Source: an uncultured Clostridia bacterium
GTDB taxonomy: Bacteria > Bacillota > Clostridia > TANB77 > CAG-508
DNA: 64,000 nucleotides
Assembly (NCBI GenBank): GCA_944388775.1
Contig: CALXKC010000001.1
Span: 3,714 to 67,713 of the forward strand
Reading direction: 5' to 3'
Shown one piece after another: positions 11,071 through 63,106 of the stretch. The translations under genes were made by a program, and so were the position numbers. The notes beneath the pieces were generated by a model. It saw nothing but the letters and a program-made list of their open reading frames with translations. It did not search any database and was not told the origin of the DNA. Position 1 is the first letter of the stretch. The number at the start of each line of letters is the position of its first letter.

Positions 11071-11150
11071 TGGGGACAGGTATATCTATAAGGTCCGTCC
11101 CCTAATCCCTGTTTTTAGGGATTTTGAGGACCGTCCCTTAATCCCTCTTT
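11071..11150. repeat. mosaic repeat, family A (GGGGACGGTCC and AGGGATT/AATCCCT modules); supplies last codons AGG GAT TAA of murA
   Basis: nine related copies in the window. Confidence 0.8.
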
Positions 11151-12389
11151 TTGATTTCAATTCCTAAGTTATTCAATTTTCTGTCAAATCCTTCATATCC
11201 TCTTAAAATATATTCTATGTTATCAACAGTTGTTGTTCCTTTTGCCATAATTCCAGCTAATACTAAAGCTGCTCCTCCCCTTAAGTCTGTTGCTTTAACA
11301 TTTGTACCATATAATTTTCTTACTCCTTTTATTATAGCGGTTTTTCCTTCTATATTTATTTTTGCTCCCATTCTAATTAGTTCACCGTGTATATTTATAC
11401 CTATTTTCAAAAATGTTTTCAACTATAATTGATGTTCCTTTTGCTGTTGTTAGAGTAGTTGCAAATATTGATTGCATATCTGTTGGGAATCCCGGATATG
11501 GCATTGTTTTTATATCTACTGCTTTTAGTTTTTTTGGTGCTTCAATTTCTATTTCTCTTCTTTGTACTTTTAATTTACATCCTGTTTCTTCTAATTTATT
11601 AATAACTGGTGTTATATGTTCTGTATCCACATTTTTTAAAAGTATATTTCCATTCGTTGCTGCTGCTATACATAGAAATGTTCCTGATTCTATCCTATCC
11701 GGCATGATGTTATAACTTACATCTTTTAAATTTTTCACACCTTCTACTTCTATTTTATTTGTTCCTGCTCCTTTTATTTTGGCTCCCATTTTGTTTAAAA
11801 AGTTTTGTAAGTCTACAATTTCAGGTTCTCTTGCAGCATTTGTGATTATCGTTTTTCCTTCTGCTAAGCAACTTGCAAGTATTGCATTTTCTGTTGCTCC
11901 GACACTTGGAAAATCTAAGTCAATTTTTTCTCCTACTATTTTATCACAACTACATGCTATTTTTCCATAGTTTTGGTCAATATTTATTCCTAATTTTTCA
12001 AATGCTTTTAAATGTAAATCAATTGGTCTTGTTCCAATATCACATCCTCCTGGATATGAAAATATTGCCTTTCTCTGTTTTCCTATTAATGCTCCTGCCA
12101 AAATTACTGATGAACGCATTTGTCTCATTAAATCTTCTGGTATTTCATATTTGTCAATTTTATTTGTGTCTATTACTATTTTATTAGACTTTTTTGTTAC
12201 ATTTCCTCCTAATTTTTTTAATATTTCAAACATCATTTGCGTATCATGTATATTGGGAACATTATATAATGTTGTTTTTCCTGCATTTAAAATAGTTGCA
12301 GCTATTATTGGAAGTGCAGCATTTTTTGAACCTGATATTGTCACTTCTCCTTCTGCTTTTTTTCCACCTTGGATTATGTACTGTGCCAT
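11138..12389 (-). CDS. murA: UDP-N-acetylglucosamine 1-carboxyvinyltransferase MurA; ORFs 11382-12389 and 11138-11422 joined by +1 shift at CGG 11385-11387
   Basis: zero frame ..ENIFENRYKYT-R-stop (ACA CGG TGA); +1 frame continues GELIRMGAKINIEGKTAII.. restoring full-length EPT fold. Confidence 0.85.
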
Positions 12390-12670
12390 TTTTTAATCAT
12401 CCACCTTGCTTTGTATTTAGGTTTTGGTTTACCTATAACCTTCTTTTTCTATATTTTATGTTTTCTTTACGTAAAATGTGTCTTTATGCAAGATGAATTG
12501 TTTTCTCTAGTCATTAAAATATTATATTTAATATATAATATTAAAAGTTATAAAAATTCAATATAAGTTTGAAAATTTAGAACTTTTATTTTTCTCTTTA
12601 CTTTTATTAGATATTTTGCTATTATTGTATTGAACTACTGAAAGTACGAATGTGCCGTAGGTAGTGTTTT

Positions 12671-13528
12671 TTATTTTAATTTCTTTTTAGCTTTTGATGA
12701 AATTCTTTTATTCTTTTCTTTTTCAATTTGCTTTGCACTTTTACTTGGTGTTGGTAAATTCTCTGGCATTGTACCACCAATTCTTTTTATAGTTTGCCTA
12801 ACAGCCTGCCCTACATTATGATGTGTTATACAAGCATCATCTTCATTATCTATATTCTTATTTTTTAAAACCTCATCTGTTTGTGTAATTCTAAATAGAT
12901 TAGCTGCTAATTCTGTACTACTCATATAATCTAATATATCTTCTTTTTCTGATATTCCTTTTCTATTAGCTATATCTTTTGCAGTTTCTCCATTATATAA
13001 TCCTCTATATCCATAATTATTAAATTTCCCATAATTTTTTACACCTGCTGATTTTGCTGTATCAAATAAATATTTATTTTTATCTTTTACATTTTTTCTA
13101 GTATATAATCTTTTCTCATCCTCATTTAATTGTTCATATTCTTGTCTTGTTATTTCTTGTTTTCTAGTTTGTACTGCAAAATAAGTTTGCGCTAATGCTA
13201 TTGCTTTTTTTCTACTATCTCCATTTTGTGCAATTAAATAACATGCATATCTTGTAAGTTTTATATCATCTATTTCCATTTCAGCATTATTTCCTACTTT
13301 TAACACCCTCCCGACGTCGGCAAAGTGTTCCTCTTGTGCAATATCACTACCTTTGCAGGCATCTTTTGCTTTAGTTATTACATTTTTGAAGTTTCCCCAT
13401 TTACTATATTCCAACATTGTCATTAGTTCTCTAGCATACCAAAATTCAACTCCATTTTCATCTACATGTTTAATACTTTCAAAGTCTTTTTCTGTTTTAT
13501 TTACTAAATTATTTGCCATGTATATCAA
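12671..13528 (-). CDS. DNA-damage-inducible protein D (DinD) family protein
   Basis: N-terminal FWYARELM-LEYSKW-NF motif as in E. coli DinD. Confidence 0.65.
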   Translation of the reverse strand: MIYMANNLVNKTEKDFESIKHVDENGVEFWYARELMTMLEYSKWGNFKNVITKAKDACKGSDIAQEEHFADVGRVLKVGNNAEMEIDDIKLTRYACYLIAQNGDSRKKAIALAQTYFAVQTRKQEITRQEYEQLNEDEKRLYTRKNVKDKNKYLFDTAKSAGVKNYGKFNNYGYRGLYNGETAKDIANRKGISEKEDILDYMSSTELAANLFRITQTDEVLKNKNIDNEDDACITHHNVGQAVRQTIKRIGGTMPENLPTPSKSAKQIEKEKNKRISSKAKKKLK

Positions 13529-13704
13529 CTCCTATCAGTTTTTAAATTGTACTATTAAATTAATATTGTTCTATCATTTCTATTTATATCATATTTATTA
13601 ATCTTTTTCAATATTTTTACGAATTTTTGTTTTTATTTTTTATATATTTTTAGATAAAAAAAGAAGGTACAGATTATTATTCTATATCCTTCTAATATCA
13701 CATC

Positions 13705-13947
13705 TTAATCTTCCTTAATATTATATTTTTTCATTAATTCTTTTGATTTTTTTACTCCCTCTTCCGTTAAATATGTAGATTTTGCTTTATGTGTACTTCC
13801 TCCTATTAAGTGTTCATCCTCTAATGCATTAAGTATATCAAAATCATACCCTTTCCATGCTCTATGAAATTCTCCATATGGTTCTTTTTCTATCCACGAG
13901 TTTAAATATAATAATAACAATGTTAATTCTTTTATTTTTTCTTCCAT
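13705..13947 (-). CDS. hypothetical 80-aa protein
   Basis: ORF only; translationally adjacent to the next gene. Confidence 0.35.
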   Translation of the reverse strand: MEEKIKELTLLLLYLNSWIEKEPYGEFHRAWKGYDFDILNALEDEHLIGGSTHKAKSTYLTEEGVKKSKELMKKYNIKED

Positions 13948-13950
13948 TTT

Positions 13951-61994: not shown

Positions 61995-62046
61995 AAAGTG
62001 CATTTTTTCTTTTTATCTTCATATATTGTACTATACTGGAGGTATT

Positions 62047-62856
62047 ATGAAATTTATTATTATAAAAACAAAAAATATTATTATCACTTTATTTTTATTT
62101 ATTATAGTATTTTATATAATATTTCTTTTACTAAATTTTAAAAACATTTCAGCAGATAAAAATTCTAATATAGATAATAGCAATAAATCTATACAAACCA
62201 GTAGCAATGAACTAGAAAATTTTTATAGCAAAATACAAAATCTAACTAATCAAAAAGAAAAAATCGCATATCTAACTTTTGATGATGGTCCTACTTTAAA
62301 ATCAACAAGTAAAATCCTTGATATATTAAATGAAGAAAATGTTAAAGCTAGTTTTTTCGTTATTGGAAAACATGTAAAAGAACATCCTGAATTAATAAAA
62401 CGAGCGTATGAAGAAGGACATTATATTGCAAATCATGGTTATAGTCATAATAATAGTAAATTATATTCAAGTGCAGATGCTTTTATAAATGAAATCACAT
62501 CTACTGATATAGAAATTGGAAAAGCTATTGGAGTTGATGATTATTGCTCTCACATTTTTCGCTTTCCTAATGGATATATGTCATCTGTTTATAAAGCAAA
62601 GAAAGAAGAATATGTTACTCTTCTTTCTAATATTGATTATACATATATTGACTGGAATTGCTTAAATAAAGATTCAGAAAAAAAGTATAGTAATCAAGAG
62701 TTATTAACCAACTTAAAACAATCTGCCAAAAATAAAGGTACTTTAGTTATTTTAATGCATGATACATCTGATGTTAATCAAACAGATTTAGTTTTAAAAG
62801 ATTCAATAGATTACCTAAAGAAACAAGGATACACATTTAAAAATTTTTACGAATAG
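62047..62856 (+). CDS. polysaccharide deacetylase (NodB domain)
   Basis: AYLTFDDGP and HSxxH motifs. Confidence 0.8.
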   Translation: MKFIIIKTKNIIITLFLFIIVFYIIFLLLNFKNISADKNSNIDNSNKSIQTSSNELENFYSKIQNLTNQKEKIAYLTFDDGPTLKSTSKILDILNEENVKASFFVIGKHVKEHPELIKRAYEEGHYIANHGYSHNNSKLYSSADAFINEITSTDIEIGKAIGVDDYCSHIFRFPNGYMSSVYKAKKEEYVTLLSNIDYTYIDWNCLNKDSEKKYSNQELLTNLKQSAKNKGTLVILMHDTSDVNQTDLVLKDSIDYLKKQGYTFKNFYE

Positions 62857-62912
62857 GGATTTAGGGGACGGTCCTAAAAATCCCTAAAAGCAGGGAATAA
62901 GGGACGGACCTC
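62854..62912. repeat. family A mosaic repeat overlapping the stop codon of the deacetylase gene
   Basis: TAGGGATTTAGGGGACGGTCCTAAAAATCCCT..GGGACGGACC. Confidence 0.8.
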
Positions 62913-62956
62913 TAATTATAATTTAATTATAAAATGATAATATCTTAATAATTTTT

Positions 62957-63014
62957 GAAATTTCGAATGCGAATGAATTCAAGATGTAATGTTAGCCGAG
63001 AAATGAAATAAATT
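62957..63014. repeat. compact copy of the bipartite CGAATGCGAATGAA / TGTAATGTTAGCCGAG motif
   Basis: matches 5254-5277 plus 5367-5396. Confidence 0.6.
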
Positions 63015-63042
63015 ATTAAAATATTATCATTAAAGTATAAAA

Positions 63043-63106
63043 GGTCCGTCCCCCATTCCCTAAAAGTAGGGATTTCAAGGACCGTCCCTAAATCCCTAAA
63101 TCCTCA
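63043..63106. repeat. family A mosaic repeat supplying the terminal codons (AGG ATT TAG) of the GH94-like gene
   Basis: GGTCCGTCCCCC / ATTCCCT / AGGGATTT / GGACCGTCCC / AAATCCCT. Confidence 0.8.

Follow-up and report, generated by a model that had tools for sequence, protein, structure and literature searches.

What kind of element sits repeatedly against the stop codons of unrelated genes, at times supplying the stop codon itself, is the question raised by a 64,000-nt stretch of contig CALXKC010000001.1 from an uncultured Clostridia bacterium (the window hereafter, meaning the whole stretch analyzed). Seven copies of a short palindromic repeat, Family A, had been listed in a preliminary description of this DNA, and all seven were located. 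The box GGGACGGWCC was found 13 times in the window when at most one mismatch was allowed, against 0.12 matches expected from dinucleotide-preserving shuffles, and the arm AGGGATT 20 times, against 8.8 expected. The density of Family A amounts to approximately one copy per 9 kb, beside unrelated genes. In line with one of the likenesses named in the preliminary description, Family A is quite probably a family of non-autonomous hairpin repeats of the repetitive extragenic palindrome (REP) type, related in kind to bacterial interspersed mosaic elements (BIMEs) and REP doublets forming hairpins (REPINs), with a mobiliser resembling REP-associated tyrosine transposases (RAYTs), resident in uncultured gut Clostridia of ~27% GC. 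This reading is carried by the many hairpin copies across the clade, the polymorphism of occupied sites, the polar placement relative to genes and the RAYT-like genes flanked by the repeats.

In regard to its anatomy, the Family A module follows the plan S-G-s, where S is AGGGATT(T), G is GGGACGGWCC and s is (A)AATCCCT, forming a 7-9 bp stem AGGGATT(T)/(A)AATCCCT and a 10-15 nt loop that carries the box. The "mosaic" is regular in plan. Units had been described as occurring in varying order and orientation, which overstated the disorder: five of the seven window copies are head-to-tail doublets with a period of 35-36 nt, and the other two are a single unit and an inverted pair. When boxes in the window and in related loci were clustered into 138 elements, 61 were single modules, 61 head-to-tail doublets and 14 inverted pairs with converging boxes, with no diverging pair, and the doublet period was 35-37 nt in nearly all cases (usually 36 nt). 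In the plan tally of 143 parsed elements, "S GT s S GA" led with 38, to which close variants are added. GGTCC nearly always ends the first box and GGACC the second, and these two pentamers are complementary. According to ViennaRNA, doublets fold as GGUCC...(AAAUCCCU-loop-AGGGAUU)...GGACC at -21 to -28 kcal/mol, with the ends of the two boxes predicted to pair around the inner hairpin and the first AGGGAUU, together with the stop codon, left single-stranded. The inverted pair at 37828-37896 is predicted to form one long hairpin of the 28-bp class (-44.7 kcal/mol, z -9.4). Family A stems are 91% Watson-Crick.

The seven copies present this plan in detail. Copy 1 (11071-11150, minus strand) is a head-to-tail doublet in the minus-strand reading, whose first unit comprises the arm AGGGATT (11146-11140), the box GGGACGGTCC (11137-11128) and the return arm (11123-11117), and whose second comprises AGGGATT (11110-11104) and the box GGGACGGACC (11101-11092); an extra degenerate inverted box, GGGGACAGG, lies at 11071-11079. 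It contains the stop TAA (11138-11140) of a murA 3' fragment, which ends AGG GAT TAA. Copy 2 (23784-23844, plus) is a doublet with boxes at 23799-23808 (GGTCC type) and 23835-23844 (GGACC type), its first base directly 3' of the stop TAA (23781-23783) of an asnS-like gene. Copy 3 (33722-33743, plus; CAGGGATTAAGGGGACGGTCC) is a single unit without a closing arm, 1-2 nt 3' of the pflB stop TAG (33719-33721) and 25 nt 5' of the pflA start. Copy 4 (35171-35228, minus) is a doublet with both boxes of the GGACC type, 6 nt past the stop (35234-35236) of a Replic_Relax-like gene at 35234-36169. Copy 5 (37828-37896) is the REPIN-like inverted pair, and it occupies the entire spacer between rluD and an rluB-like gene. 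Its left module (plus; arm 37829-37835, box 37838-37847) has an arm ending 12 nt from the ribosome-binding site of the downstream gene, and its right module (minus; box 37884-37875, arm 37893-37887) includes the rluD stop (37885-37887), read AGG GAT TAG. Copies 6 (62854-62912, plus) and 7 (63041-63098, minus) are both doublets in which TAGGGATT overlaps a stop TAG, that of a deacetylase gene (62854-62856) and that of a GH94 fragment (63096-63098), respectively. The gene ends said to be donated by the repeat were thus all confirmed, including AGG ATT TAG GGATT for the GH94 fragment and TAGGGATT for the deacetylase. The labels given earlier to the neighbouring genes likewise agree with Pfam: EPSP_synthase-family (murA-like), class II aminoacyl-tRNA synthetase, pyruvate formate-lyase, Replic_Relax-like, RluD-like pseudouridine synthase, polysaccharide deacetylase and the GH94 fragment. 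Two further observations concern these sites. A separate AT-rich hairpin stands 3' of copy 2 (~23846-23890), and the murA-like gene on the minus strand is made of two overlapping open reading frames (ORFs), 11382-12389 and 11138-11422, with a break at 11382-11422. The Pfam profile runs on across the break; the frameshift comes from one additional base near ACA CGG TGA and marks either an assembly error or a pseudogene.

Placement relative to genes is given as the offset between the A of the AGGGATT nearest the gene and the final base of the neighbouring stop codon. The distances in the window are -9 (murA fragment), +5 (asnS), +2 (pflB), +6 (35234-36169 gene), -9 (rluD), -2 (deacetylase) and -2 (GH94 fragment); at asnS, the extended CAGGG begins on the base right after the stop (+0). 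Every one of the seven copies points its AGGGATT end at the stop of a co-oriented gene, for which a model of random position and orientation without gene disruption gives P = 0.05 each and ~8e-10 jointly. The claim that every copy lies at or within a stop therefore holds in the window; more widely it does not, as a co-oriented stop was found within 10 nt of the AGGGATT end in 70 of 123 non-palindromic elements from the window and related loci (57%). One-sided placement extends beyond the window, in which the distances run from -9 to +6 nt. Counted per module, 72 of 128 modules of the AGGGATT type are stop-anchored, compared with 4 in the mirror arrangement, and in sister families with other stems the 5' arm stands at a stop in 20 of 72 modules, compared with 3. 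The commonest per-unit offsets are -9 (AGG GAT TAA/TAG, 18 units), -2 (TAGGGATT, 10 units) and 0 to +5 (23 units).

The settings of 104 elements were tandem in 76 cases, convergent in 23 and divergent in 5, with a median distance to the stop of 0-1 nt. Of the 23 elements in convergent settings, 22 have a stop no more than 10 nt from the 5' arm, and none has one that close to the opposite end. Among tandem co-oriented elements, 42 of 58 lie within 10 nt of the stop, with a median of 130 nt to the downstream start. A further 18 of the 104 elements (17%) are antisense to both neighbours, and in these the same arm is a median 20 nt from the downstream start, beside the ribosome-binding site. The bases 5' of the AGGGATT arm show only an A-rich AAN (A enriched at -2 and -3), which probably belongs to the extended stem. 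One-sided anchoring of this kind could reflect target choice or selection.

The wider census of the units that had been proposed was run on public genomes, one genome per species, with the pattern AGGGATT-N2-3-GGGACGGWCC. It yielded at least 113 loci (these and loci added later carry L numbers below) and ~140 elements among the matches listed, nearly all of them in metagenome-assembled genomes (MAGs) of gut Clostridia. In line with this, 97 of the matches listed have 21-32% GC, and the titles of L001-L080 are almost all uncultured Clostridia, Clostridium sp. or Bacillota MAGs from animal and human guts. The 16 high-GC hits are single matches that we take to be chance. Two loci are orthologous to parts of the window, L072 to 34047-42121 (~90% identity) and L109 to 20598-25549 (~81%). 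Short imperfect palindromes in many copies, the first mark of a REP, are thus present both locally (seven elements in 64 kb) and across genomes (~140 among the matches listed). A full-text literature search with GGGACGGTCC returned primers and vector sequences only.

Furthermore, Family A is one of many stem families sharing the GGGAC loop box. In a survey of 1.37 Mb of low-GC loci, 226 of 493 GGGAC[GA] boxes were flanked by a perfect stem of at least 6 bp, against 22 in controls with shuffled flanks and 25 at random positions, and the boxes were surrounded by 61 different stems. In many modules, the loop directly adjoining the stem is the box alone, 10-11 nt long. When 20 representatives with different stems were aligned in RNAalifold, GGGAC was invariant and compensatory changes occurred at 7 of 8 stem pairs. 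Since many families share the loop motif and swap stems, they form a natural series for RAYT recognition. One sister, Family B, is present in the window on the Family A plan, with the stem TGTCCG/TGGACA and the boxes GGGACGTTTCC and GGGGACATATC. Its copy at 39373-39428 (minus) has the stop TAG of the 39418-41196 gene between arm and box, and its second copy at 52531-52586 (minus) lies directly 3' of the stop TAA (52587-52589) of the 52587-53816 gene.

The link to a transposase came from comparing the ORFs of the recovered loci with E. coli RayT and checking weak hits against Pfam. The Y1_Tnp domain was confirmed in three loci recovered solely via the repeat (L006, L001 and L089), and the proteins of all three carry the HUH motif and a Y-x-x-x-NP motif. 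Their best NCBIfam match is "REP-associated tyrosine transposase" (REP_Tyr_transpos), at 63-82 bits for a cut-off of 80, compared with ~20 bits for IS200; the RAYT-like proteins lie mostly under the cut-off of this equivalog family. The layout around these genes and their homologues is recurrent, with plus-oriented box-in-loop hairpins 5' of the RAYT-like gene, minus-oriented ones 3' of it, and a stem of its own in each lineage. Such inverted flanking modules were found in L089 (Family B type, at 3100-3165 and 4130-4190), L197/198, L200, L203, L204/205 (TGTCAA...TTGACA) and L207/208 (TTCGCCCA...TGGGCGAA). AGGGATT units themselves stand 100-300 nt upstream of a RAYT-like gene in L006, L195, L196 and L199. 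In L210 an AGGGATT-type doublet lies upstream, with the boxes GGGACGTTCC and GGGACAGCC, and its inverted counterpart downstream, with GGGACGTTCC and GGGGACAACC in reverse complement. The preliminary description had proposed to look for a cognate RAYT; RAYT-like genes with modules on both sides were found in related genomes and not in the window. The repeats are not parts of a larger insertion sequence (IS), though a few elements flank a RAYT-like gene. As regards the proteins, five of them (P0007, P0011, P0012, P0023 and L089:3316-4083) are ~245 aa long, ~100 aa longer than E. coli RayT, and one cluster has precomputed helix-turn-helix-type Pfam hits (PF13412, PF08279) in the extension. A PDB sequence search with the RAYT-like protein gave no match.

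Comparison of orthologous sites also points to mobile elements. Around the orthologues of the rluD gene (37084-37812), 80 metagenome loci were compared. The rluD stop is empty in many relatives, e.g., in L115, where 18 nt separate stop and start, and in L114 it holds Family A with the same AAC AGG GAT TAG ending. Elsewhere it holds the same box in four other stem families (L116, L119/120, L124, L133 and L139-150): a GAGACA/TGTCTC stem in L116 and L139-150, with the stop inside the repeat, TGTCCA/TGGACA in L133 and another stem in L124. In L119/L120 (~1215-1260) the RluD ORF reads through the whole module and gains ~12 residues (LRQLGTELFCLK). Similarly, the pflB stop is empty in five lineages, occupied by Family A in three, and by two other families in L131 and L193. 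Most relatives of the Replic_Relax-like gene end TTA GGA ATG TAA followed by a terminator-like hairpin, and among the sequences compared a module stands there in the window, L072 and L193 alone. Unit number differs as well between the window and orthologues 81-92% identical to it: copy 4 has two units in the window and one in L072, where it is fused to the coding end (TTA GGG ATT TAG), and copy 2 has two units in the window and one degenerate unit at the same place in L109. As occupancy, stem family and unit number all vary at orthologous sites, copies must be gained, lost and resized, and identical gene ends are struck repeatedly by different families.

Some single sites deserve mention here. 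UvrA in L007 and L044 ends ...YLNRD*, with the same repeat-encoded NRD tail as RluD of the window; the final 1-3 codons of such housekeeping genes (murA, rluD, uvrA) are rewritten by the repeats. In L193, a box-in-loop hairpin at ~7360-7400, flanked by an A-run and a T-run (AAAAAGCCTACCAAGAGGGACGGACCTTTTGGCAGGCTTTTT), stands exactly between two convergent stops, a position held in relatives by an ordinary bidirectional terminator. The idea that boxes are inserted into the loops of pre-existing terminator hairpins found no support; the L193 module occupies the terminator site of its relatives, with unrelated stems. For MAG annotation, C-termini, stop codons and contig breaks at repeats are all affected.

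In copy number, location and the flanked RAYT-like gene, Family A works like REP/BIME/REPIN systems. Like the REP/BIME and RAYT (TnpA-REP) systems of Enterobacteria and the REPINs of Pseudomonas, it consists of short extragenic imperfect palindromes in many copies and mosaic combinations of few modules, with a RAYT-type Y1/HUH gene bracketed by inverted copies and several families, each with its own transposase lineage. According to Di Nocera et al. (2013, PMC3733652), REPs occur mostly between tandem and convergent ORFs, less than 20 bp past the end of the preceding ORF, whose TAG stop is often contributed by GTAG REPs. Family A shares the preference for tandem and convergent spacers, the proximity to the upstream 3' end, the occasional donation of a stop and the rarity between divergent genes. 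Stop-abutting and stop-donating placement is thus already documented for REPs, and nothing is overturned. The differences lie elsewhere. Family A carries its GGGAC motif in the loop and has no unpaired GTAG/CGTC tag at the hairpin end, CGTC being present only as the complement of the box, within a loop or bulge. In contrast to REPINs, head-to-tail doublets (61) outnumber inverted pairs (14), and inverted pairs also bracket longer cargo. The host is a low-GC Firmicute; according to Bertels et al. (PMC5581495), group 1 RAYTs occur in Clostridia, and abundant flanking repeats were found only for groups 2 and 3, those of Proteobacteria. Finally, unlike E. coli RayT, the ~245 aa transposase has a C-terminal extension. 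Family A therefore departs from known REPs in its loop motif, its direct doublets and its Firmicute host, and places an abundant system of a kind described mainly in Proteobacteria in uncultured gut Clostridia.

Other described families resemble Family A in part. The Neisseria repeat dRS3 has the structure ATTCCC-N8-GGGAAT. It belongs to the CGTC-tagged REPs, with RPE-4/6, for which Di Nocera et al. (2013) give 8-9 bp stems, 4-5 nt loops, mainly head-to-head dimers and no associated transposase (PMC3733652). The box complement GGWCCGTCCC contains CGTC, the inner hairpin AATCCCT-N5/6-AGGGATT has a stem of the 8-bp class starting with A/T and a 5-6 nt loop, and the placement is stop-proximal, all as in CGTC REPs. 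Unlike them, the CGTC of a single module lies inside the loop and not outside the stem, 4-5 extra bases precede the inner stem, and a RAYT-like gene is flanked by Family A-type modules. The TIRYT "TIRtrons" of the same source combine a tyrosine transposase gene with flanking inverted repeats that are also moderately abundant dispersed families. The inverted repeats around some of these RAYT-type genes share GGGGWSAS (PMC3733652), which resembles GGGGACAG/GGGGACGG, with GGGGACGG off at one position; the comparison is by motif and offers a lead, and the published examples come from Acidobacteria, Stenotrophomonas and others, not from Clostridia. The preliminary description also named Correia elements and Rickettsia palindromic elements (RPEs). 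Both are small palindromic repeats able to become part of a transcript or protein, and rare read-through copies do exist here (L119/L120). However, RPEs insert in frame inside genes, a behaviour that fits only these rare copies and not the rest, and Correia elements are 100-155 bp long, with terminal inverted repeats (TIRs) and a TA duplication. The loop box, the 36-nt doublet and a RAYT-like partner are absent from both.

How such repeats could spread and persist at gene ends may be outlined as follows. The GGGAC loop box would be the determinant recognized by a RAYT-like HUH (Y1) single-strand DNA transposase, which would copy modules, or anything between a plus and a minus module, via single-stranded DNA. 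New copies would survive, or be aimed, with the 5' arm against an ORF end. Given that position of the arm, most copies should be transcribed as the first bases of a 3' untranslated region (UTR). Between arm and box, two of the frames contain TAA or TAG, and TAGGGATT supplies the third, so loss or displacement of the native stop should cost only 1-3 residues (e.g., ...NRD*), and copies may be tolerated at ORF ends owing to these stops in three frames. The predicted result is likely a stable hairpin in the RNA (-21 to -45 kcal/mol) that begins 0-12 nt past the stop. By analogy with stop-proximal REPs, it may affect the stability of 3' ends, partial termination within operons or the efficiency of termination. 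In E. coli, stop-proximal REPs reportedly cause ribosome stalling and reduce expression of the gene that they follow, and Liang, Rudd and Deutscher reportedly linked REPs, termination codons and trans-translation in 2015.

Several observations weigh against a REP-type family with a RAYT-like mobiliser. Within the 64-kb window no RAYT-like gene was found, and whether the genome of the window has one is not readable from MAG fragments. Several of the RAYT-like genes adjacent to Family A are fragmented or frameshifted (L195, L196, L210), which makes current activity uncertain, and the putative role of the enzyme in transposition is read from genes and repeats. Neither a fixed insertion target nor a flanking direct duplication was found when sought at the AGGGATT arm, and neither accounts for the tight anchoring to ORF ends. 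The antisense elements escape a simple "after the stop" rule. The invariant GGGAC sits inside the loop, unlike the GTAG/CGTC tag at the stem foot of described REPs, and head-to-tail doublets, dominant here, have been called negligible among described REP families. No excess of G-U pairs was seen among the stem mismatches (20 v 12 and 14 v 13), and therefore nothing points to selection on the sense RNA.

A bolder proposal, which we hold only tentatively and consider doubtful, is that these repeats form a third superfamily of REPs next to the GTAG and CGTC types, with a RAYT-like enzyme that reads the loop and actively targets ORF ends in a polar manner. If true, the targets would be the stop codons of genes on one strand or, for a gene on the opposite strand, its ribosome-binding site, placement would reflect active target choice and not survival after random insertion, and CGTC-like REPs, so far without a transposase, would gain a cognate enzyme.

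Alternatively, Family A might be a host-selected RNA signal, a hairpin of 3' UTRs or intercistronic regions with a GGGAC loop that serves as a protein-binding site, or one that acts as a weak terminator or stabiliser tuning operon expression. Such a role can coexist with RAYT-driven spread, yet as an explanation of the family it is unlikely. Most copies are co-oriented and start at the upstream stop, so they would be transcribed in the sense direction; against this, 17% of the elements are antisense to both neighbours. The pflB-pflA and rluD-rluB junctions hold different stem families in different lineages, but many close relatives have no element at the same gene ends and gene order there is normal. 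The predicted RNA hairpins are stable and the loop is conserved across families; the stems, however, carry no G-U bias. A run of T (TTTTT) follows many modules, and the L193 module between convergent genes, with its A and T runs, resembles a bidirectional terminator, yet a terminator consensus scan calls none of the copies, and their loops are 10-15 nt compared with the typical 3-8 nt. Rfam 15 gave no hit in the window at gathering thresholds, and nothing over the Family A copies at E up to 1. In addition, a pure RNA signal leaves the modules bracketing a transposase gene unexplained.

It is very improbable that the copies are classical miniature inverted-repeat transposable elements, i.e., deletion derivatives of a DDE-type IS (Correia-, RUP- or ERIC-like) with TA/TAA-like targets common at stops. 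Inverted-pair forms do occur (14 of ~138), A is enriched at -2 and -3 before AGGGATT, and TAA or TAG is often adjacent, but most copies are single hairpins or head-to-tail doublets and not TIR pairs. Neither a flanking direct duplication nor a fixed target was seen, so the Correia-type part of the preliminary description, which implies TIRs, a TA duplication and a DDE-type enzyme, is not supported, and the adjoining transposase genes are all Y1/HUH, none DDE. TAA and TAG are ubiquitous at 72% AT, and a TAA target could not give the polarity of 22 v 0 between convergent genes; in start-proximal copies, a by-eye count found TAA/TAG within 6 nt of the arm in ~10 of 22, against ~26% expected by our own estimate, which is not convincing.

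That Family A arises by chance or from base composition, or is a decayed CRISPR-like mini-array of 36-nt period, is hardly credible: the period of the doublets is indeed regular (35-37 nt), but the excess of boxes over shuffled sequence (13 v 0.12) speaks against chance, and, as had been stated earlier, against CRISPR speak the conservation of the inter-box "spacer" itself (AAATCCCT, loop, AGGGATT), the usual one or two and rarely more units, and the dispersal of copies beside unrelated genes, ~one per 9 kb, with no cas genes noted. On anatomical grounds, integron attC sites, recoding signals of the SECIS/PYLIS type and DNA uptake sequences were set aside: the stops concerned, TAA or TAG, belong to housekeeping genes, and neither unique spacers nor cassettes are present.

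Several other repeats in the window were found along with Family A and Family B. Family C is a non-coding repeat of ~150-185 nt, predicted to form one long hairpin (-66.7 kcal/mol, z -10.9), in which the internal-loop motifs CGAATGCGAATGAAA and ATGTAATGTTAGCCGAGAAATGA are conserved and the stems covary. Copies lie in the window at 5225-5410 and in L071 (1395-1544), L072 (3795-3942), L078 (4503-4651) and L083 (2429-2594), with a shortened copy in the window at 62935-63030, between the inverted copies 6 and 7 of Family A. In four of the six copies (L071, L078, L083 and the one between copies 6 and 7) Family C stands between inverted Family A modules, and in L072 it stands where copy 5 of the window has its second arm. 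Such geometry is what would be expected if anything between a plus and a minus module can move. Family C had no Rfam match at gathering thresholds or at E up to 1.

A non-coding segment of ~180 nt (24892-25075), just 3' of the stop of the 25082-27694 gene, has copies of 75-89% identity in L046, L057, L095 and L100, and is either another dispersed repeat or a conserved RNA, with no Rfam hit at the gathering threshold. A 45-nt motif at 3201-3245, 4025-4069 and 4156-4200 lies upstream of neighbouring minus-strand genes, and L027 4775-4923 matches 4049-4196. The genes behind the motif look paralogous (repeat D8, 2960-3037 v 3742-3819), and it may be a shared operator or promoter region. Finally, the two copies of a 68-nt direct repeat of 94% identity, at 43461-43554 and 45409-45511, stand 1.9 kb apart and bracket several small ORFs, and each 68-nt repeat is joined to a 33-nt segment, the two 33-nt segments being 94% complementary to each other.

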